In this document: one piece after another, positions 8,005 through 53,723 of the stretch
Layout: every line of letters starts with the position of its first letter
Position numbering within the stretch: position 1 is the first letter of the stretch
Position numbers and translations under genes: made by a program
Assembly: GCA_964596395.1 (NCBI GenBank)
Contig: CAZQSY010000003.1
Location: forward strand, 25,678 to 89,677
DNA: 64,000 nucleotides
DNA from: an uncultured Candidatus Saccharibacteria bacterium
GTDB taxonomy: Bacteria; Patescibacteriota; Minisyncoccia; Phycocordibacterales; UBA9973
Reading direction: 5' to 3'
The notes under the pieces: model-generated
Database searches by the model: none
Told to the model about the DNA's origin: nothing
What the model saw: the letters and a program-made list of their open reading frames with translations, nothing else

Positions 8005-8078
8005 GCCGGTGTAGCTCAGGTGGTTAGAGCGCCACTTTTGTAAAGTGGATGTCGAGGGTTCGAATCCTTCCACCGGCT
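8005..8078 (+). tRNA. tRNA-Thr (anticodon TGT)
   Basis: GCCGGTG/CACCGGC acceptor stem, D-arm GCTC-AGGTGGTTA-GAGC, anticodon stem CCACT/AGTGG with loop TTTGTAA, T-arm GAGGG-TTCGAAT-CCTTC. Total 74 nt, and the 3' CCA is not encoded. Confidence 0.85.
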
Positions 8079-8081
8079 CAG

Positions 8082-8159
8082 TTGGTACCTGCCTGCCGGC
8101 AGGCAGGGAACAACGCTTTCGTAAAGCGAAGGTCCTCGGTTCGAATCCGACGAGCCAAG
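8082..8159 (+). tRNA. aberrant tRNA-like sequence (possible tRNA-Thr, anticodon CGT) with the D-arm replaced by the 20-bp REP-like palindrome
   Basis: Canonical T-arm GGTTCGAATCC at 8138-8148. Anticodon hairpin ACGCT-TTCGTAA-AGCGA with one mismatch. Acceptor stem TTGGTAC/GAGCCAA is 6 of 7 paired including a G-U wobble. The D-arm position is occupied by CCTGCCTGCCGGCAGGCAGG (8088-8107), and ~6 extra nt precede the anticodon stem. This is either a non-canonical tRNA or a tRNA pseudogene disrupted by the repeat. Confidence 0.35.
8088..8107. repeat. REP-1 palindrome copy 1 (CCTGCCTGCCGGCAGGCAGG, perfect 10+10)
   Basis: Perfect 20-bp palindrome. Related copies lie at 19597, 22765 and 50064. Confidence 0.8.
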
Positions 8160-8452
8160 CTCCAGCAAAATCTATAAATAAAATTGAAACGTTCAACACC
8201 TTTCCACCTCCACAATCACCCTCAAAAAGTGATATGAGTAACGCCTACGAAAATGATTACAAAGAAATCGTTCCCATACAGACAGCTAGCGTTCCTATCG
8301 GCAACTATCTGGCGACGGTAGCGGCGGTGGCAGCGGCGATAGTTCTCAGGTTTTTTCTAATCAGAAAAATAGGGCTAAAAAGAAAAAGGCGCTAACTGCG
8401 TCACTACAATATAAAGAGTGAACATCTTTTTATTGCCCGCACACGTGCGAAC

Positions 8453-12723: not shown

Positions 12724-13731
12724 ATGCGAAAACTTTTTTTCATAATATTCACCCTGGCGGCACTTTTTACGGCGGGTTCTGTATCGGCGCTTACCGTATC
12801 TCCCGTACGTATAGAAATCGCGGGCGACCCGGGAACGACCCTTTCGGGTGCAATAGAGCTTTTTAACGAACAAAATAACCAGGGAGAAAAAGTTTTCTAT
12901 ACTTCTTTTGAAAATTTTGAACCATCTGGCGACACGGGAGCTCCGCGCTTCATTGGGGCAAAAGACGGTCTGGCTACCTGGATAAAATCAGAGGGTAAAG
13001 TCGTTCTCGATTCGGGTGTACGAGTCACCGTCCCTTATTCTATCGATATACCCAAAGAAGCAGAGCCGGGCGGATATTTCGCGGCAATCTTTTTCGGCAC
13101 GCAAGACCCGGGGTCCCAAGGAGAGGGCCAGGTTTCGGTGGGCGGCAAAATCGGGGTACTCATGATGCTTCGGGTTACCGGCGACATAGAAGAAAATGCC
13201 GGACTTTTGGATTTTTCAGCCAAAGAAAAAAAGAGGTTTTTCACTTCCCTGCCCGTCACTTTTACCTATAGAATAAACAACGCGGGCGGAGACAGAATTA
13301 TGCCGAGCGGGGAAATAAAAATCAAAAACACTTTTCAATTTAAAACCGCCGAGCTTCCGGCCAATAAGAACTCGGGAAACATTTTACCGGGAAGCTCCAG
13401 AAAATACGAAGTAACCTGGGGAGAAGAAACGGCAGGGACCTCTGCCGAAGAAAACGCGGAAATTTCAAAGATAAAAAAATATTGGCAGGATTTCTTAGGG
13501 AAAACAAAAAACCAGCTGAAGGCGTTTCATTTTGGATGGTATAGGGCAGAACTAGACCTATCTTGGAGCGCCGAGAAACAAACCGCCAATGCTTCTTATA
13601 GTTTCTTCATTATACCTTGGCAGATTCTCTTGTTGGCCGGTATCGTTTTGCTCATACTGCTCAATCTGGGTGGAAGAATAATAAGAAGATACAACCGATG
13701 GATTATTGCTAAGGCAAGCGCGCAAAGATGA
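12724..13731 (+). CDS. cell-surface protein with signal peptide, two beta-sandwich-like domains and a C-terminal TM anchor (DUF916/DUF3324-like architecture)
   Basis: Signal peptide ...AGSVSALTVSPVRIEI..., where 'VSPV' resembles the start of DUF916. A C-terminal TM segment IIPWQILLLAGIVLLILLNLGG is followed by the basic tail RIIRRYNRW. Same strand as, and directly after, the two WxL-like genes. Confidence 0.4.
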   Translation: MRKLFFIIFTLAALFTAGSVSALTVSPVRIEIAGDPGTTLSGAIELFNEQNNQGEKVFYTSFENFEPSGDTGAPRFIGAKDGLATWIKSEGKVVLDSGVRVTVPYSIDIPKEAEPGGYFAAIFFGTQDPGSQGEGQVSVGGKIGVLMMLRVTGDIEENAGLLDFSAKEKKRFFTSLPVTFTYRINNAGGDRIMPSGEIKIKNTFQFKTAELPANKNSGNILPGSSRKYEVTWGEETAGTSAEENAEISKIKKYWQDFLGKTKNQLKAFHFGWYRAELDLSWSAEKQTANASYSFFIIPWQILLLAGIVLLILLNLGGRIIRRYNRWIIAKASAQR

Positions 13732-14250
13732 ATGAAGCCGAGAAAGCTCAAGCAAAACATATCGGCGGCAATTCTATGCTTAAGTTTGGGATTCTTCGCC
13801 TTTTCTCTCGTTAGCCGAGCGGATATAGACGTGCAAGTAACCGCTACTGTAGAGGGTTGCGGGGATGGCGCTATCGGGGCAGGAGAAGAATGTGATGGTG
13901 CAAACCTAAATGGCGCTTCATGTGTTTCGCAGGGATTTGACGGTGGCACCCTCTCCTGCGGAACTTTCTGTCTCTTTAATACCACCTCCTGTACTCTGGG
14001 CGGAGGAGGCGGAGGCGGGGGTATTCGCACGCCTATAAGAGAAACCGATACTGAGTCGCCAAAATGCGGCATCGCCGATTTTAACTGCGACACCAGGGTG
14101 GATATTCTCGACTTCAGCATTCTGCTCTATTATGAAAGTTCCGGCGCTGGAAGCACATTATATGAAGAACACGACCTTTCCGGCGACCAGAAAATAAATA
14201 TGGTCGATATATCTATAATGTTCTATTACTGGACCAACACCGAAGTATAA
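13732..14250 (+). CDS. secreted protein with a Cys-rich repeat (myxococcal CGDG...EECD type), a poly-Gly linker and a C-terminal dockerin domain
   Basis: Signal peptide. 'CGDGAIGAGEECDGANLNGASC' is the Cys-rich repeat. GGGGGGGG is the linker. Two 12-residue Ca-binding loops match the dockerin consensus D-x-[ND]-x-D-x-x-[VI]-[ND]-x-x-D: DFNCDTRVDILD (+FSILLYY) and DLSGDQKINMVD (+ISIMFYY). Confidence 0.6.
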   Translation: MKPRKLKQNISAAILCLSLGFFAFSLVSRADIDVQVTATVEGCGDGAIGAGEECDGANLNGASCVSQGFDGGTLSCGTFCLFNTTSCTLGGGGGGGGIRTPIRETDTESPKCGIADFNCDTRVDILDFSILLYYESSGAGSTLYEEHDLSGDQKINMVDISIMFYYWTNTEV

Positions 14251-14259
14251 AATTTTTAA

Positions 14260-15159
14260 ATGGTAAAAGACAAACACGCATTAAAATATAAAAAATGGCC
14301 AGCGGTGATTCTGATTCTGGCGGTTTTTGCGGTTTTTGGAAAGACGTTTGCCGAAAGTCCGTCCATCAACCAAATTTACCTAGAGGGTCCGGTTTCAGTT
14401 ATGGCTCCAGGGTCAGAATTTGCGGTAAGCGTTTACGCCCAAACAAAAAGCCCGATAAATGCCTTTGAGGTTGAACTCGAATATCCGAGAGAAAATCTAC
14501 GCTTTTTAAATTACGACAACGCCGGCTCGATTGCCGATATCTGGCAAACGGAACCATCCCCCGCGAAAGACGGAAAAATCAAAATGACGGGCGGAATCAT
14601 CGGAGCTTTTCGGGGAGAGGAAGGACTTGTAGCAAAATTACACTTCAGAGCCGTCAAAAGCGGCCTAGCTCGATTCTCCGTTGTTAAAAAAAATTTCTAC
14701 TTGGCTGACGGTAGGGGTACGGAGGTAGAAGCTGCGACAAATAATTTCTCTGTGAACATCGCGGGGGGAGCAAGTGTACCGTTCTTATTCCTTCCTCCGC
14801 CTCCAAAAGACAACACTCCGCCCAATCTTTATTTGGAAGTAGTCAAGAATCCGCCCGGCAGTCCCCCCTTGGTAACATTTTACGCCGCCGATAAAGAATC
14901 GGGCATAAAAAACACGGAAATGCGTTTCAAAAATTGGCTCAACTTCACGGAATGGCAAAAAGTCAAAAGTCCCGCCCTGTACCCTTCCGGGGCATGGTAT
15001 CTTGAAATCAAGGCCACAAACGGAGCCGGAAAAGAAACGACAGAAAACTTCTTATCTATTGAGAATCTGACTTTAAAAATAGCCAAGGTATTCTTCGCCT
15101 CCACAATCTTGGCCGTCTTGGTGAATGCGTTGTATAATAAATTTAGGCGGAAAAAATAA
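14260..15159 (+). CDS. membrane-anchored cohesin-domain protein
   Basis: N-terminal TM/signal (WPAVILILAVFAVFG). A cohesin-like segment '...EFAVSVYAQTKSPINAFEVELEYPRENLRFLNYDNAGSIADIWQ...DGKIKMTGG...GLVAKLHFRAVKSGLARFSV' matches the cohesin pattern (source strands, then 'v.l.yDp..L..v....G.l', then 'g.i.f.g', then 'tl..i.Fk.'). C-terminal TM IAKVFFASTILAVLVNALY. Confidence 0.55.
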   Translation: MVKDKHALKYKKWPAVILILAVFAVFGKTFAESPSINQIYLEGPVSVMAPGSEFAVSVYAQTKSPINAFEVELEYPRENLRFLNYDNAGSIADIWQTEPSPAKDGKIKMTGGIIGAFRGEEGLVAKLHFRAVKSGLARFSVVKKNFYLADGRGTEVEAATNNFSVNIAGGASVPFLFLPPPPKDNTPPNLYLEVVKNPPGSPPLVTFYAADKESGIKNTEMRFKNWLNFTEWQKVKSPALYPSGAWYLEIKATNGAGKETTENFLSIENLTLKIAKVFFASTILAVLVNALYNKFRRKK

Positions 15160-15163
15160 ACAC

Positions 15164-17173
15164 ATGAAACGCTTCACTTTTTTTATTGTTTCTCTTGTTT
15201 TTCTGGCTCTGCCGGGGATAAGCAAAGCGGCAACTTTGTTGCTTTCTCCGCAAGTCGGCAATTTTTCTGTCGGCTCCACTTTCAATGTCTCAATACTTTT
15301 AGATACCAAGGGTCAATCGGTAAACGCCCTGGAAGTTTCGCTTTCCTTTCCCCCCGACATGCTCCAAGTTATATCGCCGTCAACCGGCCGCTCCATAATA
15401 GAGGTCTGGACGGCTAGTCCGAAATTTGACAACAAAAGCGGCAAAATAGAACTCAGGGGCGGCATCCCGGGGGGCATAAGTGCTTCGAGCGCCCTCGTTT
15501 CTACCGTAACTTTCAGGGTTAAGTCCGTAGGAGAAAGCGCGATTAAGTTCTTAGATAACTCAAAGGTGCTACTCAACGACGGCCTAGGCACCAATGTTTT
15601 GAATCAGACGGTAAATGGGGTCTACGGTTTTAATCTTCCGCCTCCAGCCGGTCCAACTGTGGTTTCAGACACTAATCCCGACCAGGCAACATGGTATTCA
15701 AGCAAAACGGTCTCTTTAAAATTCATAAGCCAAGGTGGGGGCACGGAAGACGGATACAGTTACATACTCTCAGACAATCCCACCACTATCCCAGACGACA
15801 TAAGCGAAGGTAAGAAAAATTCAGTTTCCTACACGAACCTCACCGACGGTACGCATTATTTCCACGTCAAAGCCATGCGGGCGGGAAGCTGGGGAGGAAC
15901 GACTCATTTCGCGATTAAAATTGATTCTACTCCGCCGGCTGATTTCAAAATTGACATCGCCCCTTCAGCCCGCACCTCCACCCGCCAGCCGATTATCCAA
16001 TTCTTGACGACCGATACCCTGTCGGGAATCGAGAGTTATGATTTAAAAATAGTACCCTTGTCCGCCTATGGAAACAAAACCAGCGCCGGCGAATTTTTCA
16101 TTGAAGCAGAAAGCCCTTATTTCCCGCAAACCCTATCCGTCGGCAATTACGACGTGATTGTCCGCGCTTATGACAAATCCGGCAATTTCAGGGAGGTGAC
16201 AAAACGCCTGCAGGTGGTAGCTCCCGTTTTCTCTTTTATCTCCGCCGACGGAATAAAAATCTGGAGCATTTTAATCCCGTGGATTTATGTTTGGATTTTC
16301 CTTTTCTTGTGTATCATCGCCTTGGCGTACCTGGCTCACCGCACTAGACGCTGGCGGCACACGGTGCACTCCGCGCAAACCGAAGGCAAATTGCCGGAAG
16401 ACGTGCAAAGAGAACTCGAAGAGCTCAAGAAATACAGGGAAAAATACGGCACAGCTGTTTTGGTGCTGGCTTTGATTTTATCTTTGACACTCATCTTCCC
16501 CGGCCTGACCGAGGCCCAGACCCCCCAAATCGCTCCGCCACTCATCCAAAGCATTTCTAAAAATATTTCCAACGAAGAAATATTTTACGTCGGCGGAAAA
16601 ACGGATTTTGCCGACGAGAAGGTAATCATCTATCTGCAAAACCTGCAAACCGGCGAAACCTTCAGCCAATACATCGAAAGCGACAGTAAAGGCGACTGGT
16701 TCTATCGGCATGGCGGCTTTCTGTCTCCAGGAAACTATCTTTTGTGGACGCAGGGAAAAATAGGCGAAGAACTCTCCCCTCCCAGCCCTCAAGCCAAAAT
16801 GACGGTGAGCAGGACAGCGGTAGAATTCGGTAGCGGTCGACTTAGCTACGAGATGATTTACCTACTGATAGTGATTTTGCTCTCGGTGTGCCTGTTGGGG
16901 TTGGGTATTTATATAATTTTCCATCTCTATCACGGAAAGAAAAAGCACGCTGAACTAAAAAAGGACATCATGGAAGCAGAAGAATCTATAAAGCGGGGTT
17001 TTGCGGTGCTAAAAAGAGACATAGAAGCCGAACTCAGACTCATAAACAAAATGAAGTTATCATCCGCTATGTCTGCTGAAGAGAAGATTAGAGAAAACCA
17101 GCTTTTGTCAGACCTGGAAAACATCCAGCAAAAAATCGGCCAAGAAATCTGGGAAATTAGCGAAGAGGCCTAG
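15164..17173 (+). CDS. multi-domain membrane protein: signal peptide, cohesin domain, Ig/FN3-like domains, 3 TM segments, C-terminal coiled coil
   Basis: Likely start is MKRF at 15164. Cohesin-like 'FNVSILLDTKGQSVNALEVSLSFPPDMLQVISPSTGRSIIEVWTASPKFDNKSGKIELRGG...ALVSTVTFRVKSVGESAIKF'. 'DGTHYFHVKA' marks the Ig-like domains. TM helices lie at approximately residues 385-410, 450-470 and 555-580. C-terminal EELKKYREKYG and KDIMEAEESIKRGFAVLKRDIEAEL are coiled coil. Confidence 0.55.
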   Translation: MKRFTFFIVSLVFLALPGISKAATLLLSPQVGNFSVGSTFNVSILLDTKGQSVNALEVSLSFPPDMLQVISPSTGRSIIEVWTASPKFDNKSGKIELRGGIPGGISASSALVSTVTFRVKSVGESAIKFLDNSKVLLNDGLGTNVLNQTVNGVYGFNLPPPAGPTVVSDTNPDQATWYSSKTVSLKFISQGGGTEDGYSYILSDNPTTIPDDISEGKKNSVSYTNLTDGTHYFHVKAMRAGSWGGTTHFAIKIDSTPPADFKIDIAPSARTSTRQPIIQFLTTDTLSGIESYDLKIVPLSAYGNKTSAGEFFIEAESPYFPQTLSVGNYDVIVRAYDKSGNFREVTKRLQVVAPVFSFISADGIKIWSILIPWIYVWIFLFLCIIALAYLAHRTRRWRHTVHSAQTEGKLPEDVQRELEELKKYREKYGTAVLVLALILSLTLIFPGLTEAQTPQIAPPLIQSISKNISNEEIFYVGGKTDFADEKVIIYLQNLQTGETFSQYIESDSKGDWFYRHGGFLSPGNYLLWTQGKIGEELSPPSPQAKMTVSRTAVEFGSGRLSYEMIYLLIVILLSVCLLGLGIYIIFHLYHGKKKHAELKKDIMEAEESIKRGFAVLKRDIEAELRLINKMKLSSAMSAEEKIRENQLLSDLENIQQKIGQEIWEISEEA

Positions 17174-17874
17174 GGTTTTGAAACGCTTTCGCTTCCCTTC
17201 TCCTCTGTCGCGCCTTCTTCGAGCTTAAAGGATTTCTTTATCCGTGAATCAAGCTCTTCAATATCGCGGAAGCCGGTCAAAACATCGTCCTCGATAACAA
17301 GCGCCGGCAATTCCGTATCCTTGATTTTGTAAATCTGGAGCATCGAGCGCACCGCCGAAAGGTCTATATTGAAATCAAAAGAATAAACGCGCAGGTCGCT
17401 ATATTTCTCGCGCAAGGCAGAGAGCACCAAACCTTCTTTCTCGCAGTCAGAGCACCTGTTCTTATCGGTGTAAAAATAAAGTATAAAAGCCGTTTTCTTG
17501 CCGCAACGCTCCGAAATTCTCTTGGAAAGCAGGTAATCTTTTATCTCTAACAGAGAGTAATATTTCTTTAAATACATAACTTCATCAGTCATACCAAGAT
17601 TTTTTTCACTCCATTCCAGTTTCTGCCCGAGCTCCGAGAGCTCCTGGGACAAAACAGAGTGGGAAATATTCTTACAGGAAAGCTCCGACAAGAGCGAATA
17701 CTGCGCCTCAGAGGAAAGAATGTCTATGGCGATATTGTCTTGTATCGATTTGAGCTGCTTCACCTTTCTGTCGCTGAGATAGCCGCTCAGGTAACTAGCC
17801 GATAAAAAAATACCGGCGGTAAACAAAAAAACTATTAAATATTTTTTCCAGTCAATGTTGTGTTCTGGGTGCAT
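17170..17874 (-). CDS. membrane-anchored thioredoxin-fold-like protein with a CxxC motif (hypothetical)
   Basis: N-terminal TM (LIVFLFTAGIFLSASYL). 'TAFILYFYTDKNRCSDCEK' is a CxxC motif in a beta-alpha context reminiscent of thioredoxin/DsbA. The assignment is weak. Confidence 0.3.
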   Translation of the reverse strand: MHPEHNIDWKKYLIVFLFTAGIFLSASYLSGYLSDRKVKQLKSIQDNIAIDILSSEAQYSLLSELSCKNISHSVLSQELSELGQKLEWSEKNLGMTDEVMYLKKYYSLLEIKDYLLSKRISERCGKKTAFILYFYTDKNRCSDCEKEGLVLSALREKYSDLRVYSFDFNIDLSAVRSMLQIYKIKDTELPALVIEDDVLTGFRDIEELDSRIKKSFKLEEGATEEKGSESVSKP

Positions 17875-17901
17875 GTTTTTTTCGTTTAAAACCGCCCTGG
17901 G

Positions 17902-19149
17902 TTACCTCCAGGACGGGCTTCTGGAAAGGAGTGTATTGTATACCGCCTTAATGAGCCAAAACGGACCAAAAATACTGAAAACAAAAAAATAATAAAATAT
18001 ACTCGAGGGAAAGGCCCACCGGCCTTCTACCATTCTTTTACCTAAAGTCACCGAAATGACCACCAGCGCATACAAAAGAAGAGACACGAAAAAGGCGGAT
18101 TTGGTATTTATGAAAAATGGGTCAAAGCGGGTTATGCCGGATAAGAAATAACCGAAACCGGCCGTCTTCCACTGTAAAATTTTTGAAAACAGGAAACTGC
18201 CTAAATTGTAGGCAGTCGTTCCTAAAATAAAACCTACGGAAAAAATAGAAATAATACCGGCCGGCACGGTAAAAAAAGAAAAGTTTCCGTATTTCCTGTT
18301 GAAAAGCATGTCCCGGTAATCAATCGTGTTGTTAATGAAACCGTAAATCCAGCGCAATCTTTGCTTAAAAAGTTTCCTTACTGTGGATGGCGTATTGGTG
18401 TAAACGTAGGCATCGTTGCATTGCTCTATGCGATAGCGGTGCCTCTGCATCCGGTAAGCGATTTCCATGTCTTCGGTGGTGTGAGCATGCCGGTACAAGC
18501 CCAGGTCGTCAAAAACTTTCCTGCGGAAAATAGTCAGGGGGCCGGGCGTCACATGAATAGCTCCGAGGAAGGATTGTACCTTTTTCACAAAAACCGACAT
18601 ATTATATTCAGCTTTCTGCGCCTTCTGCACCAAACTCCGGCTGTCGCCCGACAAGATTGAAGGCGTTACCGCCATGACTCCTGGGTCTTTTTCAAAATAA
18701 CTCATTATGCGCGCCAGGGCCTCCGGGTCGGCTACCGAGTCAGCATCCAAACAGCCCACAAACTCGGTATCTGAACGAAGGATACCGTAATTCAAAGCGG
18801 TGTACTTCCCGCCGTTTTCTTTGCGGAAAATCTGCACATTTTTGCGGCCGGAAAATCTAGAAATCCTCTCCCAGGTGCTGTCGGTAGAGCCGTCGTCTAT
18901 TAAAAAAATTTTCAGCTTATCCTTCGGATAGCGAAGTCCGAGCAGCGAACAGACGGTGCGATAGACCGTTTGTTCTTCATTCCAACAAGGAACGATAACA
19001 GTAACCGATGGATACTTGCCCAGTTTTATCTGGCTGTTTCTCCTCACTATTTTTTTGCGGTTTTCTAAAAAGGTAATCAAAAAGAATACCTGCACGTAAA
19101 CAGACAAAAAAACCAATATGTAAAAAAGCGCGCTTGAAATTGAAGCCAT
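17902..19149 (-). CDS. family-2 glycosyltransferase, processive type (chitin/cellulose/NodC-like synthase) with flanking TM helices
   Basis: 'VTVIVPCWNEE', 'LIDDGSTD', 'GCLDADSV' (DxD motif), 'QRLRWIYG' (the Q-x-x-RW motif of processive GT2 enzymes). N- and C-terminal TM segments. Confidence 0.8.
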   Translation of the reverse strand: MASISSALFYILVFLSVYVQVFFLITFLENRKKIVRRNSQIKLGKYPSVTVIVPCWNEEQTVYRTVCSLLGLRYPKDKLKIFLIDDGSTDSTWERISRFSGRKNVQIFRKENGGKYTALNYGILRSDTEFVGCLDADSVADPEALARIMSYFEKDPGVMAVTPSILSGDSRSLVQKAQKAEYNMSVFVKKVQSFLGAIHVTPGPLTIFRRKVFDDLGLYRHAHTTEDMEIAYRMQRHRYRIEQCNDAYVYTNTPSTVRKLFKQRLRWIYGFINNTIDYRDMLFNRKYGNFSFFTVPAGIISIFSVGFILGTTAYNLGSFLFSKILQWKTAGFGYFLSGITRFDPFFINTKSAFFVSLLLYALVVISVTLGKRMVEGRWAFPSSIFYYFFVFSIFGPFWLIKAVYNTLLSRSPSWR

Positions 19150-19202
19150 GTTTTACCGGCAAAACCGCGCAAAAACCGCGGGATTCCTTATATTATAGCA
19201 TA

Positions 19203-19240
19203 AAAATCAAAACTCCGCCACCTTTTTCAGGCCGGCGGAG
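19203..19240 (-). terminator. intrinsic terminator downstream of the DUF378 gene
   Basis: On the minus strand, the hairpin CTCCGCC-(14 nt)-GGCGGAG is followed by UUUUGAUUUUU. Confidence 0.4.
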
Positions 19241-19267
19241 CTTTGAAAAACGCTGAGTATTCTTTAA

Positions 19268-19564
19268 CTACATACTGCTTCCTTGCCCGCCGTCTTGCTT
19301 TGGCTCACAAACCCCGTCTTTGCATTTTTCACACCCGCAACCAAATATCGTCATCACACCCGCCACACCGACAAGCAAATAAACCAGCGCTTCAACAAGC
19401 GGAACCGAACCGAGCAGCATACCGACTATGTTCCATCCGCTGTAACTTCCAAGGAACATACCGAGGCCAACTAGACCCCAGTTTACGGCACCTACGACAA
19501 CCAGCACCTTGACCAAAACGCTCACGGTGCAACCCCACTTGCCGCAGCAATATCCTTTACACAT
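19268..19564 (-). CDS. DUF378-family small membrane protein with Cys-rich termini
   Basis: 'VVGAVNWGLVGLGMF...WNIVGMLLG' matches the DUF378 pattern. Cys clusters MCKGYCCGKWGC and CGCEKCKDGVC lie at the termini. Confidence 0.55.
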   Translation of the reverse strand: MCKGYCCGKWGCTVSVLVKVLVVVGAVNWGLVGLGMFLGSYSGWNIVGMLLGSVPLVEALVYLLVGVAGVMTIFGCGCEKCKDGVCEPKQDGGQGSSM

Positions 19565-19596
19565 AGTTTTTTGTTTTTAATTATTTATAATTTTCA

Positions 19597-19616
19597 ACCT
19601 GCCTGCCGACAGGCAG
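19597..19616. repeat. REP-1 palindrome copy 2 (CCTGCCTGCCGACAGGCAGG, 1 substitution)
   Basis: Intergenic, about 100 bp upstream of the RAYT-like transposase gene. Confidence 0.75.
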
Positions 19617-19663
19617 GGACCCTTCACGGTACATATTATACCACGACTTCGTTTTCTTTAGTT

Positions 19664-19690
19664 AAAATGAGCAAGGACTCCCCTTGCTCA
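19664..19690 (+). repeat. 27-bp hairpin repeat, left copy (AAAATGAGCAAGGACTCCCCTTGCTCA; 9-bp stem, 5-nt loop)
   Basis: Identical to 20394-20420, in direct orientation, flanking the Y1 transposase gene. Confidence 0.85.
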
Positions 19691-19719
19691 AGATGGGAGT
19701 AAAATTATATAATTGAAGG

Positions 19720-20394
19720 ATGTATAGAAAAACCCCATTTGCAGAAAATGAGCATTATCACATCTATGACAGAGGAGTGGAAAAGCGCAAAATTTTTCTT
19801 TCAAAAAAAGATTATCAGCGCTTTGTGGCCCTCCTGTACATTATGAATCAGGACGAGTCGTTCAGAATGGACAATTTTTTGCGCGAAGAAGAAAACAAGC
19901 TAGGCAATATATTCAACGAAGAAAGGAGCAAAACCCTGGTCGCCGTTTTAGGTTATTGCCTAATGCCAAACCATTTTCATTTGATTCTATATGAAAAGAG
20001 GGAAGGGGGTATAAGTAAATTTATGGCCAAACTTTTAACCGCTTACTCAATGTACTTCAACACAAAATATGAAAGAAGCGGCCCGCTCTTTACCCGACCT
20101 TTCAGGTCAGAATATATAGATAACGAACCGCAATTTATGTATATATTCTCGTATGTGCACTTGAATCCTCTTTCAGTCTTAGACAGAAAGTGGAAAGAAA
20201 ATGGCATAAAAAACAGAGACGAAGCGGAGAAATTTCTGGAAAATTATGATTACTCCAGTTATCAGGACTTCCTTAGTGCAGAAAGAGTAGAATCAAAAAT
20301 CGTTGACTTTTCTCTTGTGCCGAAATATATAAAAAACATGAGAATGGATTTAGACACGCAAGAAAAAAACCTGAGCATAAATGACGAGAGGTGA
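19720..20394 (+). CDS. HuH Y1 transposase of the IS200-like / REP-associated tyrosine transposase (RAYT, PF01797-like) family
   Basis: 'YHIYDRGVEKRKIFLSKKDYQRFVALL' matches the 'YHVtqRG..r..IF.ddeD...fl.lL' pattern. 'GYCLMPNHFHLIL' is the HuH motif. 'FMYIFSYVHLNPL' places the catalytic Tyr in the Y-x-x-x-NP context. At 224 aa it is longer than classic IS200 TnpA. Confidence 0.7.
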   Translation: MYRKTPFAENEHYHIYDRGVEKRKIFLSKKDYQRFVALLYIMNQDESFRMDNFLREEENKLGNIFNEERSKTLVAVLGYCLMPNHFHLILYEKREGGISKFMAKLLTAYSMYFNTKYERSGPLFTRPFRSEYIDNEPQFMYIFSYVHLNPLSVLDRKWKENGIKNRDEAEKFLENYDYSSYQDFLSAERVESKIVDFSLVPKYIKNMRMDLDTQEKNLSINDER

Positions 20395-20420
20395 AAATGA
20401 GCAAGGACTCCCCTTGCTCA
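20394..20420 (+). repeat. 27-bp hairpin repeat, right copy
   Basis: Identical to 19664-19690. Confidence 0.85.
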
Positions 20421-20432
20421 TTTTGTACGCTT

Positions 20433-21614
20433 TTAGTCAAAGTAATTCTTCAGCCGGGCGATTTTTTCGTGCTGGCGCAGTTTCTCATGCACTTTTGCCT
20501 CAATCTGGCGGATGCGTTCGCGAGTCACGCCAAATCTTTCCCCGACATTCTCTAACGTGTGCTGAATACCGTCTTTCAGGCCGTAGCGCATTTCTAAAAT
20601 TTCCCGCTCCTTGTCTGAAAGCTCAGCGAGTACTTCGCGAATCTGGTCAGAAAGAATTCTCCTAGACGACTCCTGGTCGGGACGCAGGATTTTGTCGTCC
20701 GGAATGAAGTTTTCCAGAGTGGACTTGTCGTCATCATCCCCTACCGGCTGTTCCAAGGATATAGTATCCTGGCTGATGCTTTCAATGGTGTGAATTTTCT
20801 CCACCGGCACGCCCATTTCGGTGGCAATCTCTTCGGCCAGGGGCTCCCGGCCCAAATCCTGCGAAAGTTTTCTGTAAACCTGTTTGTATTTGGAAATCGT
20901 TTCCACCATGTGCACCGGTATGCGGATGGTTCTGGACTGGTCGGCCAGCGCGCGGGTTATAGATTGTCGAATCCACCAAGTGGCATAAGTCGAAAACTTG
21001 TAGCCCTTGGTCCAGTCGAATTTTTCCACTGCCTTAAACAGGCCCAGATTGCCTTCTTGGATAAGGTCAAGGAGTGAAAGGTTGGCGGAGCGGCCGACAT
21101 ATTTCTTGGCAATAGACACAACTAAGCGCAGGTTTGCCCTAGCCAGCAGATTTTTCGCCTCCACATCCCCCGCTTCTATGCGCTTAGCAAGTTCTTTTTC
21201 GTCCACCGCGTGAATAAGCGAATACTGCCCGATTTCCTTCAGATACATCTGTATCGAATCATGCGTAGAGGATTTAGAGAGTTCTTTGTCTAGGGTATCT
21301 TCTTCAAGGTTGAGCAAATTCCCGCCTTCGAGCACGTCCACCCCGGCCGCAGAAAACTTCTCGTACAGCTCATCCAAAAAGAGAATATTGTTCTCTATAT
21401 CCGGAAAGGTCTTTAATATTTCGTCGTAAGTAACGAACCCCCTCTTTCTGCCTTTCTCTAAGAGAATCAAGGACAACCTGCTAAATTCGTCGGCCTTCTT
21501 AGCGGAAACGGACGGCCTGAGGGATTTTGTTTTCTTCGCCTCTTTCTTTTTTGAAATTTTTTTCTTCGTTTTTTTTCTGCCGGACTTCAATTTTTTGCTC
21601 GTTTTTTTCTTCAT
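20433..21614 (-). CDS. rpoD: RNA polymerase primary sigma factor (sigma-70)
   Basis: Lys-rich N-terminus. '[16 protein letters not shown]' is region 1.2. '[39 protein letters not shown]' is region 2. '[23 protein letters not shown]' is region 4. Confidence 0.9.
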
Positions 21615-21628
21615 TGTGTTTATTTTTT

Positions 21629-23488
21629 TTAAACGACCGTTTTTAATTCTTGTATCTTTTTGTTTATCTCGTTTATTTCCCGCAAAATTTTCTCCGCTCC
21701 TTCTTTCTCTGCCCTTGATTCCATTCCGTGCAGCGCGTTCATTTTGGATGCAAGCGTCTCCCTCAAATGTTCTAAAACAAAATTCCGCGCGAGCTCGTCA
21801 AAATCTTTTCTGATGTCGACATCCCCTCCATAAAAAACCTCCGCTTCAAAAATTAAATCACCTTCGTTCTCCTGCGTACCCGAAAAAATTTCTTCTGCCT
21901 TGCATCCTAGCATATCCGAAATTTTATCAAGCACCTCCTCTACATTTATGGCCGGTTCGGGTAATTTTTTTTGCCACAAAATTATTCCCAAAATCCTTTG
22001 CTTGATATAGTCCTTTCTGGAGGGAAAATTTTTCGTTTCTCCGGTTCCGCTCCTTCCCCCCGTTTCGGCCGAAGAACCTTTTTCTTTTTCCAACCCGGCT
22101 AAATCCTCACGCAAAGCGCTTTCGCTGATTCCCGACAAGTCAGCGATTTTTTTGATGAACACGTCTCTTTCGATACGGCTCGGAAGTTCCAGAACGTACG
22201 GCAATACTTTTTCCCTTATTCCCCGGCCGGCCTTACGCGCATCTTTCCCGCTTTCCTTAAGTACCGCCCGCAAAACGAATTCTATTATGTGACAAGAATC
22301 GCGCACGGCTTTCTTCCAAGCATCCGGCCCTAATTTAGAAATGACGTCTGCCGGGTCCATACCTTCGGGTATAGAGGCAATTTTCACATCCATCCCCAAA
22401 GATAGCGCGATTCTGCCGGCCCGCATAGCGGCACCAAAACCGGCCTTATCCGCATCAAAGGAAAGAATAATATTCTGCGAAAGCCGCCCCAGAAGCCCTA
22501 GTCCCGAAACAGACTTTTCTCGGGAACGTTCTTCTTCCGAGGAAATTTTTGAAATCGTGGATTCCGACAAGGCAGTGCCCGAAGTGGCCACGGTATTTCT
22601 GAAGCCCGCCTGATGTGAAAGCAGCAAGTCCATCTGTCCTTCGACCATAATCGAGAAATTATTTCTGCGTATTGAATCCTTGGCTTTGTCTAAACCGTAC
22701 AAAACCGAGGACTTGTTGAAAATCGGCGTTTCCGGACTGTTCAGATATTTGGCCTGACTTATCACCTGCCTGCCGCCTGCCTGTCCGGTAGACAGGGCAG
22801 GCAGGTCGTCTTTAAAAATCCTGCCCGAAAAAGCTATTACTCGGCCGCTCGAATCGGAAATCGGGAAAACAATTCGCCCGCGAAACCTGTCGTAAAAACC
22901 CGAGCCGTTGTCAGCTTTTTTGATAAGCCCCGCTTGCTCCATTTCTTTCTCAGAAAAACCGAGGGTCTTCAGATGAGAAAAAAGCGCCCGCCATTCTTCC
23001 TGCGCCCAACCCAGTTTGAATTCCTTTATAGTGGAGTCCTTAAGTCCTCTATCTCTCAAGTATTTAAGCGCCTCTTCGTTTTGCCAAAGATTTTTTTCAA
23101 AGAACCCGGCCGATTCCAAAACCGCACGGTATAGTCTATCTTTTTCGCCTTCTTTTTCCTGATTCCATTCACGAAGAGATATGCCGGCACGGTCAGCGAG
23201 CACTTTGAGCGCTCCCCGAAAATCAAGCCCCTCAAACTCTTCCACAAAAGAAAATATATCCCCCTTCGCCCCGCAGCCGAAACAATAGTAGCTCCCGCGG
23301 TCGGGCGACACGAAGAAAGAAGGAGTTTTTTCGCTGTGAAAGGGACACCTTGCTTTTAGGTTCTTGCCCGCTTTTTCCAATTTCAGATATGAAGAAACCA
23401 CTTCTTCTATAGAGAGCCTCTCCTTGATTTGTTCCGCAGGAGAAATCATCGCTTTTTTTGTTTGGCGAAAAAAATTTCCGTCAGCCAC
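21629..23488 (-). CDS. dnaG: DNA primase
   Basis: CHC2 zinc finger '[30 protein letters not shown]'. TOPRIM motifs '[10 protein letters not shown]' and '[11 protein letters not shown]'. '[11 protein letters not shown]' is also present. There is a 16-aa insertion encoded by the REP-like palindrome (see findings). Confidence 0.9.
22765..22805. repeat. REP-1 palindrome copy 3, expanded imperfect variant (CCTGCCTGCCGCCTGCCTGTCCGGTAGACAGGGCAGGCAGG), in-frame inside dnaG
   Basis: Read on the minus strand it encodes [16 protein letters not shown] within DnaG. Confidence 0.75.
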
Positions 23489-23512
23489 ACTCGGAAAATT
23501 TCTTCCACTTTC

Positions 23513-26500
23513 TTAATTTTTTTGCTTCTTAAATCCCGTTCCGGCGGGGATTAGTCGGCCGATTATTACGTTCTCTTTAAGACCGCGCAACGAGTCAATC
23601 CCACCCTTGACGGCATTTTCTATCAAGACGCGGTTAGTGTTCTGGAATGACGCAGCCGAGAGCCAGCTCTTGGTGCGCAAAGAAACTTCAGTGATGCCGA
23701 GCACGATTGTTTCTGCCTTCGCTTCTTTCTCACCCAAGGCCAGTACTCTCCTGTTTTCTTCTATAAGTTCGGTATTTTCCACTACATCGCCGGCCGAAAA
23801 GGTGGTCTCCCCCGCGTCTTTGATTTTCCTTCTGGAAAACATTTGACGGATTATTATTTCCGTATGCTTGCGGGCAATCGACGCGCTTTGTAATTCATAA
23901 ACCTTGTTTATTTCGCGGGCGATGTATTCCTCAACCATTTCTTTAGTGCCGCTCTTGAACATCTCGGTAATATCCGCCGAGCCGTCGGTCAGAAGCTCTC
24001 CTTTTTTGACTTTTTGCCCGACTTTTACTATCGGAGTCCTGCGGAAAGGAACCGTGTATTCTATCTCCTTCGATTTCTTGTCTCCCTCTTCCGGGTCTGA
24101 AAGAACTTTGATTATTTTTTCCTTTTCATCTTTGTCCTTTATCTCAAAAACCTCTCCATTCGTCTTGGAAATTACGGCCGGATTCTTTGGAATTCTTCTT
24201 TCAAAGATTTCTTCCACGCGGGGTAAACCAGTGGTGATGTCGGTACCGGCCACGCCTCCGGCGTGGAAGGTGCGCAGGGTAAGCTGAGTTCCCGGCTCGC
24301 CGATGGCCTGAGCCGCGACAATACCAACCGCCTCGCCCATATCTACCAGACGGTTGCGGCCCAAATCGAGCCCGTAGCACATCTGGCATATTCCGTGAAC
24401 AGTTTTACAAGTAAGGGGCGAACGCACAAAGACCTCTTCAAAACCAGCTCCCTCTATGTTGGCCGCTTCTTCCTTGGTTATAAGGAAGCCCCTCTTGTAC
24501 ACAACCTTGCCGTCTTTATCTTTCAAATCCGAAGCTAGGATGCGTCCGCGGATATTCTTGGAAAGCGGTATTTCTATCCCGGAAATATTTTCCCGCGTCA
24601 CCATTTTTCCTTCCTTGGTGCCGCAGTCCTCCTCGGTTATCACAACGTCTTGCGCGACATCCACCAACCGGCGGGTAAGGTATCCGGCCTTGGCAGTGTT
24701 CAAGGCGGTGTCGGAAGCGCCTTTTCTGGCGCCGTGAGTAGTGACGAAATACTCTATCGGAGAAAGCCCTTCCTTGTATGAAGGTATAACCGGAAATTCC
24801 AAAGTTTTACCCTGGTTGTTTTGAATCAGGCCTTTCATTCCGGTCACCTGCATCAGCTGACCCATGCTGCCTCTGGCTCCCGACGTTAAAAGGTCGAAAG
24901 CCGAACCGTTTTTATCTAAGGTTTTCGGGAGAATTTTCTCCATGTCTTTCTTGGCCTGGGTCCAGATTTCTATTATTTTCTGATACCTTTCTTCTTCCGA
25001 CAAAAGACCTTCCTTCCATTGAGATATTATTTCTTCCTCTCTTTTTCGGCTATCCGCGACTATTTTCTCCTTTTCCGCCGGCACGTTCACGTTATCGAGT
25101 CCCCAGGTAGTCCCAGAAAAAGTAGAATACTTGAAGCCAAACTGCTTTATTTTGTCCAGAACCGGAGGAGTGTTATCCACTCCGTAATACATAATTAATT
25201 CATCTACTAAGGAAGACAATCTCTTCTGGTTCATCTCGTCACCGATGTAAGCAAAATCGGAAGGCAGAATACTGTTGAACAAAAGCTTGCCCACAGAGGT
25301 TTCAAAAAGTTCTCCGGAAAATTTCTTGTATTTCACCGTATCGGTGGCCAAAACCTTAATTTTGGCGCGGATAGAGAGAACCCCGTATTCGTAGGCCGTG
25401 ATAGCGGCATTCGGGCTGGAAAAATATTTCCCTTCGCCTTTCTCGCCGTCCACCGCTTTCGTCATCCAATAAACGCCTAGTACTATGTCTCTCGAGGGGT
25501 GCACAATCGGGTCGCCGTTTTGTGGCTTGAGCAGATTTTTGTTGGCCGCCATTAATTCCCGCGCTTCGGACTGCGCTTCATCCAAAAGCGGCACGTATAC
25601 GGCCATCTGGTCGCCGTCAAAGTCAGCATTGAAAGCCGTGCACACCAGCGGATGCACCCGAACAGCGTTGCCTTCTATAAGCACCGGGTTAAAGGCCTGA
25701 ATGCCTAATCGGTGCAAAGTCGGCGCGCGGTTTAGGAGCACGTACTTTCCCTGAATCACTTCTTCCAGCATCGCCCACACTTCCGGAGTGCGTTCTTCTA
25801 TCAATTTATTCGCCCCGCGGATGTTGAAGGCGAGTTCCGCCTGCAAAATTTTCGAAATTACGAAAGGCCGGAAAAGCTCCAAAGCCATGTGTTTCGGCAA
25901 GCCGCACTGGTTGAGATTCAGTTCCGGGCCGACCACAATGACGGACCTGCCTGAATAGTCCACCCGTTTACCGAGCAGATTCTGCCGGAAAAGGCCCTGC
26001 TTTGATTTCAAATTATCCGAAAGGGATTTCAGCGGGCGCTTCTGCGACTGGCTCATGGCCGCGCTTTCGTTTTGCTTCGCGATAGAGTTGTCTATCAGCG
26101 CGTCCACGGCCTCTTGGATGATTCTTTTTTCGTTTCGCAAAATTACATCCGGCGCGTTTATTTCCTTCAGTTTCTTCAGCCGGTTGTTGCGGTTGATTAC
26201 TCGGCGGTACAGATCGTTCAAGTCAGAGGTCGCGTGCCGTCCGCCGTCAAGCGCCACCATCGGGCGAAGCACCGGCGGTATAACCGGAATCACGGTGAGA
26301 AACATCCATTCCGGCCGAATGTCGGCGTAAATCATTGATCGTATCAGGGAAAGCCGTTTTTGCAGTTTCTCTTTTTCAACTGCGCTCGATTTTTCAAGCA
26401 TCTTCTCGGTATGCGCTTTCAGCTTATTCAGATCGAGATTCTTGAAAATCGAATATATCGCCTCGGCTCCGATGTTTGCTTCGAAACAAGTGCCGTACTT

Positions 26501-49191: not shown

Positions 49192-50010
49192 CTAAGCGAT
49201 AAGTTCTCTGATAATATCGGCTTTGTGCACAACGTCGTTATACCCTATACGCATAGTTTTTATTATATGTTCCCTAGTATTGTCTAAGGTACCCGAAAAT
49301 AACCTTACACCGGGCTTTATAATTAAAATATTTTTATCTTTATAGTTATGTCTCGTCTCCCGAGTATAAGACCACACTTTTTCCCTGACGTATTTTCCCA
49401 AAAACAAGGAAAAAAATCGCAGAAGATTTTTAGAGAAGAAATCATGATGTGAATTATCAAAAGCAATAATTACTTCGGCTCCCTCCTGTTTTGCCTTCTT
49501 GATATTCACATCCAAGGGAGCCTCAATGGCGCCGTCTATATAAAGGTTTCTTTTTATTCTCACTAATTTGTTGTAAACAACGGGAGCGGCGTTTGAGGCC
49601 CGCAATGCTTCAAATATATCTACGTCATCCTTGTTGCTCACGTACTCTATCTTCTTATTATTAACGTTCGTCACGGAAACAAAAAACTTTATTTTTGACT
49701 CTTTAACCGACCGAGTATCAAGGGGGTCCTGTTTCTTGAAAATTTCGTCTATCAGATAATCAATATCCATAATTTCTCCCAACCTCCAGAATGAAACAAA
49801 TTTTTTCGAAGGGAGAAGATTCTGCCAAATATTTTTTATTGAACCGTATTGCCTGGCGACGTAATACGCGAGCGTACCGGTACTGCCGGAACTGCCTACG
49901 ACCATGTACGGGTCGGTGAAATTCAATTTTTCCACGAGCGCTAAAATAGCACCGGTAAAATAGGCGCAGGACATACCTCCTTCCGAACCGATAATGGCAA
50001 CTTTCTTCAT
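49192..50010 (-). CDS. patatin-like phospholipase
   Basis: Oxyanion 'VAIIGSEGGMSCAYFTG' (GxGxxG). Nucleophile elbow 'GSSGS' (GxSxG). Catalytic Asp region 'YIDGAI'. The likely start is MKKVAII at 50010, whose ATG overlaps the helicase TGA stop in an ATGA arrangement. The track start is 50043. Confidence 0.8.
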   Translation of the reverse strand: MKKVAIIGSEGGMSCAYFTGAILALVEKLNFTDPYMVVGSSGSTGTLAYYVARQYGSIKNIWQNLLPSKKFVSFWRLGEIMDIDYLIDEIFKKQDPLDTRSVKESKIKFFVSVTNVNNKKIEYVSNKDDVDIFEALRASNAAPVVYNKLVRIKRNLYIDGAIEAPLDVNIKKAKQEGAEVIIAFDNSHHDFFSKNLLRFFSLFLGKYVREKVWSYTRETRHNYKDKNILIIKPGVRLFSGTLDNTREHIIKTMRIGYNDVVHKADIIRELIA

Positions 50011-53000: not shown

Positions 53001-53060
53001 GTCAAATAATCCGGGAGCCATCGTGCCCCTATTATACCCCGCCTTTTGTTTCAGCGACAT
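50007..53060 (-). CDS. UvrD/PcrA-like SF1 helicase fused to a C-terminal PD-(D/E)xK (RecB/Cas4/AddB-type) nuclease with 4 Cys (Fe-S cluster-type)
   Basis: Helicase motif I 'VVAGPGTGKTQIL', 'CLTFTNSAVRAMRERL', motif II 'VLVDEHQDSSG', plus later helicase motifs. C-terminal 'CPRKWYF', then 'IYGKIDLVEKL' and 'VTDFKTGS' (DYKTG-like), then 'RPCDYKSFLPAGRQVTNSCEYC'. A REP-1 copy encodes LPAGRQV between the Cys residues. Confidence 0.8.
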   Translation of the reverse strand: MSLKQKAGYNRGTMAPGLFDDEYRKLNPAQKEAVDTIDGPVMVVAGPGTGKTQILALRIGNILKKTDVGADSILCLTFTNSAVRAMRERLQKYIGEEGGRVEVLTFHSFCGKIIDEFFHVLSLPFAPRILEDTEAVSLCDQILRQNEWQYLRPRGDIGRHFKELRSLVSLLKRERLSPRDFLDEIEKEIQAIQNDPESISSRGETKGKMKKEYLEKIEGLERTKEIVSFYDMYEKLKQEKGLLDYDDQIKYALQILEESENARAEIQVRYLYVLVDEHQDSSGAQNALLKTIWQKVEKPNIFAVGDDRQLIYAFGGAKFSYFEEFKDIFGKAKVIFLTQNYRSTQKILAAADKLLSSSFSEEKLVATLKENHNLKLFECDYPRDEVIACGIELKEKLLSKEVKESDCAILVPKNTQAREAMRVLGGLGIKVAGARGLSLFATAEFSALLRVFKICANIHDPVPLAESILDPVSGIPRLAAHSYLYQERGKTVSLQDMAGQREDLFGSSGTREIKEWGEKLLRLVSFSSSLDMQEFVQKVGDEVLLKTAKGHTELLERIEVVRSVLHLALSFAEKENRQEKNSLPGFIAFIERLREYGEDFPLASFKSDEGVKVITLHASKGLEFDFVWVAHLDEGSLMKGRRRNFRLPESVALKVEEKDEAAAKRELYVAITRAKRFCRLSYPRFSYSGREQELAKIVSELAAANAGQADSVFEKLTFSETEEKILSDDPKNYVASGEKNDVQDTIPKLLEMVSKEYAEVNVSVSLLNNFFECPRKWYFRNLLKLPEPKNETLEFGSRVHAAMEKILKFRKPPSGKDLEEIAQGEKGLLRIISRWVKERFAEINPDRETEKSVSVRAAEFPRLSIYGKIDLVEKLGERDVRVTDFKTGSVRKKSDIEKINEDPAFTDGARGRMSDYMRQLAMYSFLLERSSKGRVSVNESRLEFLEAKDGKESVYSTTIGRDRFDLLLQDIKDYETLVKTGKWLDRPCDYKSFLPAGRQVTNSCEYCEMMKRIYKTA
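50064..50083. repeat. REP-1 palindrome copy 4 (CCTGTCTGCCGGCAGGCAGG, 1 substitution), in-frame in the helicase-nuclease C-terminus
   Basis: It encodes LPAGRQ on the minus strand within the Cys-cluster linker. Confidence 0.75.
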
Positions 53061-53462: not shown

Positions 53463-53539
53463 GGTCTTCTTTTTTAAAAATTAGATTATCGACCTTTTCC
53501 AAAACCTATTTAATTGTATCATGTATGCAGAGATGTCAA

Positions 53540-53591
53540 CCCCGTCGCTCGCCCTGTCATTCGCGAATGACGGGGCTCGCGAGCGACGGGG
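53540..53591. repeat. 52-bp nested palindrome: outer 13-bp arms CCCCGTCGCTCGC/GCGAGCGACGGGG enclosing a 26-bp near-perfect palindrome GCCCTGTCATTCG|CGAATGACGGGGC
   Basis: Read directly from the sequence, intergenic between the 53724 gene and the cupin gene. It shares its 13-mer with the hairpin at 31067. Confidence 0.8.
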
Positions 53592-53723
53592 TCAAGAGCG
53601 CGGCAGAAAACGCTATTTGCTTTTTGTTTGTCGTTCATTTTAACTTTCCTCAAAATATTCCATAGCCCGTGAAGCTCGTGATGCTCCGCGAGCTACCGCG
53701 CTTGTTCTTGCGCGCCATCGGCA

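Follow-up and report, generated by a model that had tools for sequence, protein, structure and literature searches.

How does an essential replication enzyme come to carry a dispersed palindromic repeat within its reading frame? The question is raised by dnaG, the gene for the essential DNA primase, of an ultra-small, uncultured Patescibacteria bacterium. The gene lies in a stretch of 64,000 nucleotides (nt) of a metagenome-assembled contig (CAZQSY010000003.1 of assembly GCA_964596395.1, positions 25,678 to 89,677), referred to here as the window. An initial annotation of the window described an in-frame palindromic insertion in dnaG at 22765-22805. The sequence, the open reading frame (ORF) and the codon reading all bear it out, and since the coding-strand codons translate as given, the description was accurate. 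A nested palindromic repeat does sit in frame in dnaG. The insert is translated in frame and made of a dispersed repeat, and the loop that it enlarges is short in most relatives and in solved structures. We propose, with a probability of about three in four, that the 41-nt block is a selfish, miniature, non-autonomous palindrome resembling repetitive extragenic palindromes (REPs), nested, in frame and tolerated in a permissive loop of DnaG.

A nested palindrome in frame in dnaG

The features at this locus are the following.

21629-23488, minus strand: dnaG (DNA primase), a 619-residue ORF with Pfam matches to Zn_ribbon_DnaG, DNAG_N, Toprim and DnaB_bind.
22765-22805, unstranded: 41-nt composite palindrome, from inverted-repeat analysis, core-pattern count and fold energies.
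22754-22804, minus strand: 17 inserted codons, L229-Q245, from an alignment with 120 relatives, the codon view and model confidence (predicted local distance difference test, pLDDT).
22765-22775, unstranded: left 11 nt of an outer 20-mer, E (CCTGCCTGCCG), by dissection against E, with the split point seen in loci L025 and L049.
22776-22796, unstranded: inner 21-nt variant, E2 (plus strand CCTGCCTGTCCGGTAGACAGG; coding strand CCTGTCTACCGGACAGGCAGG), of a 21-mer family present in other loci.
22797-22805, unstranded: right 9 nt of the outer E (GCAGGCAGG), by the same dissection.

The block reads CCTGCCTGCCGCCTGCCTGTCCGGTAGACAGGGCAGGCAGG and is not due to chance. Its outer arms of 11 nt are perfectly complementary (22764-22774 and 22796-22806), and the inner inverted repeat measures 14 nt. 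The core pattern CCTGCCTG..CAGGCAGG has 4 matches in the 64-kb window versus 0 in 100 shuffles, and the fold energy of the insert, set against shuffled sequence, is -30.8 kcal/mol as RNA (z = -3.5) and -16.9 kcal/mol as DNA (z = -3.8). The block consists of a 20-nt perfect palindrome, E (CCTGCCTGCCGGCAGGCAGG), cut into 11 and 9 nt, with the 21-nt E2 inside. The same E2-in-E composite is present in a Bacteroidales locus (L059), E lies within E at the identical split point in L025 and L049, and E2 stands alone elsewhere (L101, L067 and, twice, L221). Because the split point and the composite recur in this way, nesting is position-specific and recurrent rather than a local accident.

The coding strand at the loop reads GAC GAC CTG CCT GCC CTG TCT ACC GGA CAG GCA GGC GGC AGG CAG GTG ATA AGT CAG GCC AAA TAT. 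The two Asp codons before the insert are part of the lineage-canonical xDDGKSAKY. The 17 residues L229-Q245 stand in place of the lineage's GKS, a net gain of 14 residues (42 nt) over close relatives. The initial annotation had counted 16 extra residues and called them the translation of an expanded repeat copy, REP-1; the extra residues are palindrome-encoded, but there are 14 of them, and the repeat is E2 nested in E rather than an expanded form. E contains no stop codon in the reading frames LPAGRQ, CLPAGR and PACRQAG, and because it is a palindrome this holds on both strands.

E (the 20-mer, with up to 1 mismatch) occurs at three further sites in the window.

8088-8107, unstranded: E without mismatch, within the D-loop region of a degenerate tRNA-Thr(CGT)-like sequence that lies beside tRNA-Thr(TGT).
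19598-19617, unstranded: intergenic copy of E with 1 mismatch; the first hairpin (stem from 19668) of a Y1 transposase unit described below lies ~50 nt downstream.
50063-50082, unstranded: E with 1 mismatch, in frame as FLPAGRQV in a UvrD-helicase / PD-(D/E)XK nuclease ORF (50007-53060, minus strand).

The copy at 50063 falls ~20 codons before the stop of its ORF, the end of which overlaps the start of the next gene (patatin-like, 49192-50043). The tRNA-Thr(CGT)-like sequence (8076-8164) directly follows tRNA-Thr(TGT), is without a 5' acceptor strand and is called by neither ARAGORN nor Rfam.

The host protein is a DnaG-type primase by its Pfam domains (Zn_ribbon_DnaG at residues 19-106, DNAG_N at 129-270, Toprim at 280-383, plus a DnaB-binding C-terminus), by the retention of every family-invariant residue and by the superposition of its model on DnaG RNA-polymerase domains. 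Where in this protein does the insert fall? In solved DnaG structures (B. subtilis 5GUJ, S. aureus 4E2K and P. aeruginosa 5VAZ) the segment from GR..F.GR to KYLNSPET is 4-6 residues long; the B. subtilis loop reads GRAL-GSQQ-PKYMNSPET. An AlphaFold2 model of the query, built on 120 homologues (mean pLDDT 78.8), superposes on DnaG RNA-polymerase-domain structures (4EDG, target-normalised TM-score 0.86), and residues 227-253 of the model have pLDDT below 50 and no secondary structure. Given the solved loops, the superposition and the low pLDDT, the insert is predicted to be a disordered surface loop in the N-terminal subdomain of the RNA-polymerase (catalytic) domain, just before KYLNSPET. The initial annotation had placed it between the zinc-binding domain and TOPRIM. 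It is a loop excursion within the catalytic domain and not an inter-domain linker.

Two side observations concern the same protein. The listed ORF begins with GTG at 23488, and the family consensus starts MNSPVQKIKERL, with an ATG 13 codons downstream (23449-23488). Because the family consensus begins there, that ATG is probably the true start and the annotated N-terminus probably too long. A second insert particular to the query, ISSEEERSR (22495-22555, residues ~309-327), lies in the Toprim region with pLDDT below 50. We considered it as a further hairpin insert and rejected it, as it forms no hairpin (z = 0.35); for this reason it is probably of different origin from the palindromic insert.

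The loop in related primases

How widespread are such inserts? The nearest proteins in a 5.8-billion-sequence collection are 57-63% identical by the BLASTP measure, and those with names belong to Paceibacterota, Nomurabacteria or Patescibacteria. The query DnaG itself is absent from the protein database, its best match being 62% identical. In an alignment of the query with 120 relatives (121 sequences), 91 of the 121 have the short loop xDDGKSAKY, and insertions at exactly this place are found in the query and 29 relatives. Together with the same 20-mer elsewhere in the window, this upholds the proposal of the initial annotation that a dispersed repeat encodes a loop of an essential primase. 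The inserts of the 29 relatives are varied and mostly hairpin-forming, and 3 of them derive from E.

Several loci illustrate this variety. In L001 a perfect palindrome of 22 nt, ACCTGCCTGCCGGCAGGCAGGT, occupies the same codon position, and GTG ACA AGT CAG follows it (GTG ATA AGT CAG in the window). The dnaG loop of L002 holds a decayed copy of the palindrome, and dnaG of L003 has a 21-nt copy 2 codons upstream of the window's site as well as 2 further in-frame copies elsewhere in the gene. Unrelated strong hairpins occupy the same loop in L006 and L007 (-23.9 and -35.5 kcal/mol). L004, L128, L129 and L130, and less closely L005, carry PSTSSGQ-type peptides that come from a different motif, B (CCTTCGACAAGCTCAGGGCA..), which is also at this site in another dnaG, at locus L136. 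The initial annotation had pointed to equally long linkers free of palindromic DNA as evidence that would count against it; what the long loops carry is the same palindrome (L001-L003), a hairpin (L006, L007) or B.

E-type inserts of 7 residues (SLPAGRQ, ATPTGRQ, DLPVGRQ, PCLPAGR, GKRLPAG) occupy four DnaG loops in ~17 of the 121 sequences. Their consensus positions (163, 181, 211-216 and 346) all lie between secondary-structure elements of the model. This lineage has repeatedly gained such inserts, in this loop and three other DnaG loops, and their length is nearly always a multiple of 7 codons.

Insert-bearing DnaG proteins are scattered on a neighbour-joining tree, but that tree is star-like and poorly resolved, and we therefore relied on nearest-neighbour identities in its place. 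Insert-bearing proteins are 82-93% identical to canonical-loop sisters (P0009-P0059, 92.6%; P0050-P0071, 91.3%; P0092-P0112, 91.5%; P0040-P0046, 81.9%) and 66-73% identical to other carriers of the same insert (P0009-P0040, 66.3%; P0050-P0013, 73.4%). P0020 and P0054 have unlike loops at 93.9% identity. Because carriers sit closest to canonical-loop proteins and carriers of the same insert sit far apart, gains, losses or replacements at this loop are frequent. Since they recur in unrelated lineages, indels in the DnaG loop are unreliable as phylogenetic characters; the loop is usable as a recombination marker among Patescibacteria.

Does the insert travel between lineages? The insert DNA shared by the window and L001 is identical at 29 of 30 positions, versus 62% gene-wide (P about 1e-5), and its third codon positions match in 10 of 10 cases versus 45% expected (P about 3e-4). 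In a stretch of ~45 codons with the loop at its centre, the identity of L004 and L128 is 0.90-0.97, the peak of the gene, versus 0.71 gene-wide; another pair with the same insert type reaches only 0.72-0.83 around the loop. The pair L004 and L128 suggests that short recombination tracts may carry the insert between lineages.

Element E across genomes

E is far from confined to primases. A scan for exact matches with one genome per species, in which ~1 match would be expected by chance, found it in at least 120 genome loci with unrelated flanks, in roughly 8-10 phylum-level groups. By record title the carriers belong to many classes of Patescibacteria, to Omnitrophota, Bacteroidota and Planctomycetota, and further to gamma- and delta-proteobacteria, Bdellovibrionales, Thermodesulfovibrio and Chloroflexi. 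Those in Bacteroidota include the cultured isolates Winogradskyella echinorum, Flagellimonas yonaguniensis, Longitalea luteola and Flavivirga, and E is also present in one complete chromosome, that of a Flagellimonas metagenome-assembled genome. Viral contigs of IMG/VR contribute 35 stretches with E, one contig of 29.5 kb having at least 6 copies, while three composition-matched control palindromes gave 0 viral matches each. In GC-rich, phage-like IMG/VR contigs (L211 / L240, L231, L238, L239) it sits in intergenic DNA between tandem heptamers (GGTGAGA / CCTCTAA) or forms the core of a longer repeat. Matches in reference plasmids and GenBank phages were partial and noisy only.

Most copies are non-coding: 81 of 91 (about 89%) fall outside long ORFs and 10 inside. 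In-frame copies have Pfam-confirmed hosts in GatB, FtsK, a sugar 4,6-dehydratase (a nested copy), HsdS and a PMT-type glycosyltransferase. The flanks of 125 copies show no conservation beyond A at -1 (43%) and T at +1 (39%). There is no target-site duplication of fixed length among 123 copies, where adjacent direct repeats measure 0 nt in 68, 1 nt in 39 and 7 nt in 4, the last sitting in local tandem repeats. The flanks are ~3-10 times enriched for short direct and inverted repeats over random local positions; for repeats of at least 7 nt the figures are 15.9% versus about 4-5% locally (direct) and 9.1% versus 3-4% (inverted). Several copies lie at the centre of a larger hairpin, and 5 or 6 at the junction of the D-loop and the 3' D-stem in partial or degenerate tRNA genes. 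Copies in 5' tRNA-gene fragments are those of L022, L037, L044, L106 and L113; removing E restores a tRNA in L037 only, the others being 5' fragments or degenerate copies.

Two copies carry double substitutions, G8A/C17T in L003 and T7A/A18T in L059, both of which keep the hairpin register CCTG + CCTGCC-GGCA-GGCAGG. These two cases are a lead, rather than a result, towards compensatory changes that preserve one hairpin register. That CCTG might serve as a 'tag' in this shifted register is speculation prompted by the same two changes.

Which known system does E resemble? REPs carry a conserved unpaired tetranucleotide tag, GTAG or CGTC, at one end (Di Nocera et al. 2013, PMC3733652). The same authors report many intragenic copies in genes for replication and repair, at places that are arguably loops or linkers. 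The likeness to REPs, to their doublets (REPINs) and to the REP-associated tyrosine transposases (RAYTs) lies in palindromes of 20-40 nt that are dispersed and mainly extragenic, with some intragenic copies, and in the presence of a Y1 transposase in the window (PMC3733652; Bertels & Rainey 2011, PMC3116915). E is a short, dispersed, mostly extragenic palindrome (four sites in 64 kb; 81 of 91 copies outside long ORFs). However, E contains neither tag and 125 copies share no conserved flank; the Y1 gene of the window is flanked by hairpins that differ from E; and copies of E are single or nested, not the spaced inverted pairs of REPINs. Since E is a perfect palindrome, it cannot be assigned an orientation. 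A REP family is usually lineage-specific, which E is not.

Rickettsia palindromic elements (RPEs), credited to Ogata et al. in 2000 and 2002, are reportedly ~100-150 bp long and lie in frame in protein-coding genes. They and E share the character of selfish palindromes that survive in ORFs, housekeeping genes included, where they lengthen the protein by a peptide segment at structurally permissive places and with the frame kept. E is nonetheless no RPE: those elements are ~100-150 bp and confined to Rickettsia, whereas E is 20-21 nt, mostly extragenic and identical in many phyla, so that the in-frame property agrees but size and host range do not. In-frame insertion of RPEs is mentioned in PMC3733652. 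Miniature inverted-repeat transposable elements (MITEs) have terminal inverted repeats and a target duplication of fixed length, which does not describe E, although E could be two abutted 10-nt inverted repeats. The small dispersed repeats of cyanobacteria, attributed to Elhai et al. in 2008, are said to measure ~21-27 nt, to be nested and to be thought mobile without a transposase, in families of Nostoc/Anabaena. By that description they would resemble E in size and nesting, but they are said to be different sequences found in cyanobacteria only, whereas E is a perfect palindrome spread across phyla and viral contigs. HIP1 (GCGATCGC) is a short palindrome over-represented in coding and non-coding DNA of cyanobacteria, with no established function (PMC5861425, PMC4390886). 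It is 8 nt long, hyper-abundant and embedded by codon choice, whereas E is 20 nt, low in copy number and adds codons. Nor does E look like an intrinsic terminator, as 125 flanks judged by eye, not counted, show no consistent T-run and the dnaG copy lies inside an ORF. As a feature of a primase, then, the insert is a new example of a known phenomenon. REP, MITE or RPE biology does not explain E itself, which is 20 nt long, has the same sequence in different phyla and in viral contigs, nests in itself and lacks a partner gene. A search of the available literature returned no matches to the sequences of E or B or to their peptides, and its leading results held no RAYT or REP elements tied to Patescibacteria.

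The candidate mobiliser in the window is the unit that follows the E copy at 19598.

19664-20424, plus strand: Y1 (HUH) transposase unit, IS200/RAYT-like, made up of the gene (19720-20394) and identical hairpins (19664-19690 and 20394-20424).

This gene is the sole candidate in the window for a hairpin-handling enzyme. It matches Pfam Y1_Tnp (E = 2.3e-8) and, below the curated cut-off, NCBIfam REP_Tyr_transpos (E = 5.9e-10), and it has HFH and YVHLNP motifs. The identical pair of flanking hairpins reads AAAATGAGCAAGG-ACTCC-CCTTGCTCA. The unit lies between DUF378 and rpoD, where relatives L002, L005 and L006 have a DsbA gene. The homologues listed, from many Paceibacteria, are 68-77% identical, a higher conservation than that of DnaG. 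Of 36 homologue loci checked, at least 22 have their own covarying xAAGG-N3-5-CCTTx hairpin on both sides, and in some loci the downstream copy is a REPIN-like doublet. In these respects the gene and its hairpins are RAYT-like. As the mobiliser of E we rejected the gene on the evidence of adjacency: its hairpins belong to another family, no E (with up to 3 mismatches) occurs in 339 kb around 80 homologue loci, and only 1 of 120 E loci has a homologue nearby. These last two results are why no link between Y1 and E is established. Our best guess for the mobiliser is some single-strand transposase of the HUH/Y1 type that acts on E in trans, although we hold this to be less likely than not.

B is a second dispersed element across phyla, with a conserved 11-nt loop and a variable stem, found at many unrelated loci and in 33 viral stretches (L248-L280). 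Might E, E2 and B, all of them hairpins of 20-22 nt whose pairing is perfect or nearly so, form a class of their own? We put forward, as a tentative idea that we regard as doubtful when taken whole, that they may be undescribed ultra-small elements that cross phyla, without genes or a fixed target duplication. They would insert at hairpin loops (their own centre, the D-arm of tRNA fragments), persist in frame in DnaG, GatB and FtsK, and spread on viral DNA or by short-patch recombination, and the enzyme that moves or writes them would be one not yet linked to them.

How the insert may have come about

We suggest that E inserts at many places in a genome and that its targets are probably hairpin loops in single-stranded DNA, the middle of an earlier copy among them. 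Every copy in an essential gene would then be purged by selection unless the frame is kept and the loop is permissive, and this filter would produce the hotspot in the DnaG loop, possibly reinforced by recombination and by landing in hairpins already present. Alleles with an insert may also pass from one lineage to another when short patches recombine homologously by way of the conserved flanks. The 14 added residues would be tolerated by the primase rather than useful to it.

Several points weigh against a selfish element that inserted here. The one hairpin transposase in the window has cognate hairpins unlike E, and E is missing from the 80 loci of its homologues. No protein family is enriched within 3.5 kb of E; the largest cluster covers 6 of 155 loci and, judged from one sequence, resembles a generic signalling protein. 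E has neither a constant target-site duplication (123 copies) nor a conserved flanking tag (125 copies). An exact-flank pattern scan of metagenome contigs found no alleles of the same species with or without the insert; with no empty site of that kind, the insertion event would have to be read from relatives ~60% identical. The part of the insert that follows the palindrome, ..AGT CAG, is common to E-type and B-type alleles, so the history at the site includes replacement or conversion steps whose order is not recoverable. Identity across phyla could mean that E is kept for a function and is not purely selfish, and the return of inserts to one and the same DnaG loop could stem from some advantage for the primase or its mRNA.

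Could the larger loop have been selected for the behaviour of the primase, such as template binding or contact with the zinc domain or the helicase, with the palindrome as raw material? The loop sits directly before conserved basic and aromatic residues of the catalytic domain, 29 of 120 relatives (about a quarter) are enlarged at the site, and the same insert recurs in distant lineages. However, the inserts are unrelated as protein (LPAGRQ, PSTSSGQ, SAQGGSASGG, VPTPKGVGTPT, NRQDLLRKQVLPV) and differ between proteins 92-94% identical, the model shows the insert as disordered, unrelated proteins contain the same peptides, and E is mostly in non-coding DNA. We think an adaptive loop improbable. 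Growth of the palindrome in place, by template switching or hairpin-primed slippage during replication, would fit the nested form, which is readable as a tandem duplication of each arm (CCTGCCTGCCG twice, GCAGGCAGG twice), and the short direct and inverted repeats in which flanks of E are enriched. Against this, unrelated flanks surround the same 20-mer at four window sites and in at least 120 loci of other genomes, the inner copy is a variant in its own right, 21 nt long and found alone elsewhere, and the identical composite exists in a Bacteroidales genome (L059); we give a local origin little credence.

A third alternative makes the protein insert a side effect of a hairpin that acts as nucleic acid, in translation pausing, RNA processing or stability, as a protein-binding operator, or as a replication or recombination signal. 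Expression of dnaG in E. coli is held low by signals in its operon. Further points in favour are the high stability of the hairpin (-30.8 kcal/mol as RNA), the unchanged sequence of the 20-mer from phylum to phylum, and the single register kept by the two compensatory double substitutions. Yet the position of E relative to genes is not consistent, and no T-run follows it, by eye, in the listed flanks; it occurs in many unrelated contexts, pseudo-tRNAs included, most relatives lack a hairpin at the site, and no Rfam family matches. The chance of such a function is in our judgement slim. Lastly, palindromes can mislead assemblers, and the window comes from a metagenome-assembled contig. An artefact of assembly, a concern raised in the initial annotation, or of sequencing, through a chimeric join or a hairpin, is nevertheless very unlikely: a Logan contig of run SRR15237813, made by a different assembler though perhaps from the same reads and so a test of the assembler, not of the sequencing, is 100% identical over 12,675 nt (window 13720-26394), insert included; the gene is essential and its frame is kept; independent metagenomes (L001, L002) have homologous inserts at the identical codon; E is present in isolate genomes and one complete chromosome; and decayed and compensated copies exist.

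If, as we prefer to read it, the block is a selfish palindrome that a permissive loop tolerates, then a replication enzyme both streamlined and essential accommodates 14 repeat-encoded residues beside a conserved motif of its catalytic domain. For the primase itself this is a modest result, and annotation and structural modelling need to allow for such inserts. The unexplained behaviour of E is the reason that the locus merits follow-up, as it could point the way to a new mechanism by which very short DNA is moved or written.

Other palindrome families were seen in passing. A third family, TCCGCC..GGCGGA (for example TTCCGCCGGAGGCGGATCCGCCTCCGGCGGAA), occurs in intergenic DNA, in L137 upstream of a Y1 gene, and also as the DnaG-loop insert SAQGGSASGG of L006. 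Nested GC-rich palindromes of yet another family (GCGAGCGACGGGG... / CCCTGTCATTCGCGAATGACGGGG) lie in intergenic DNA of the window at 53526-53605.

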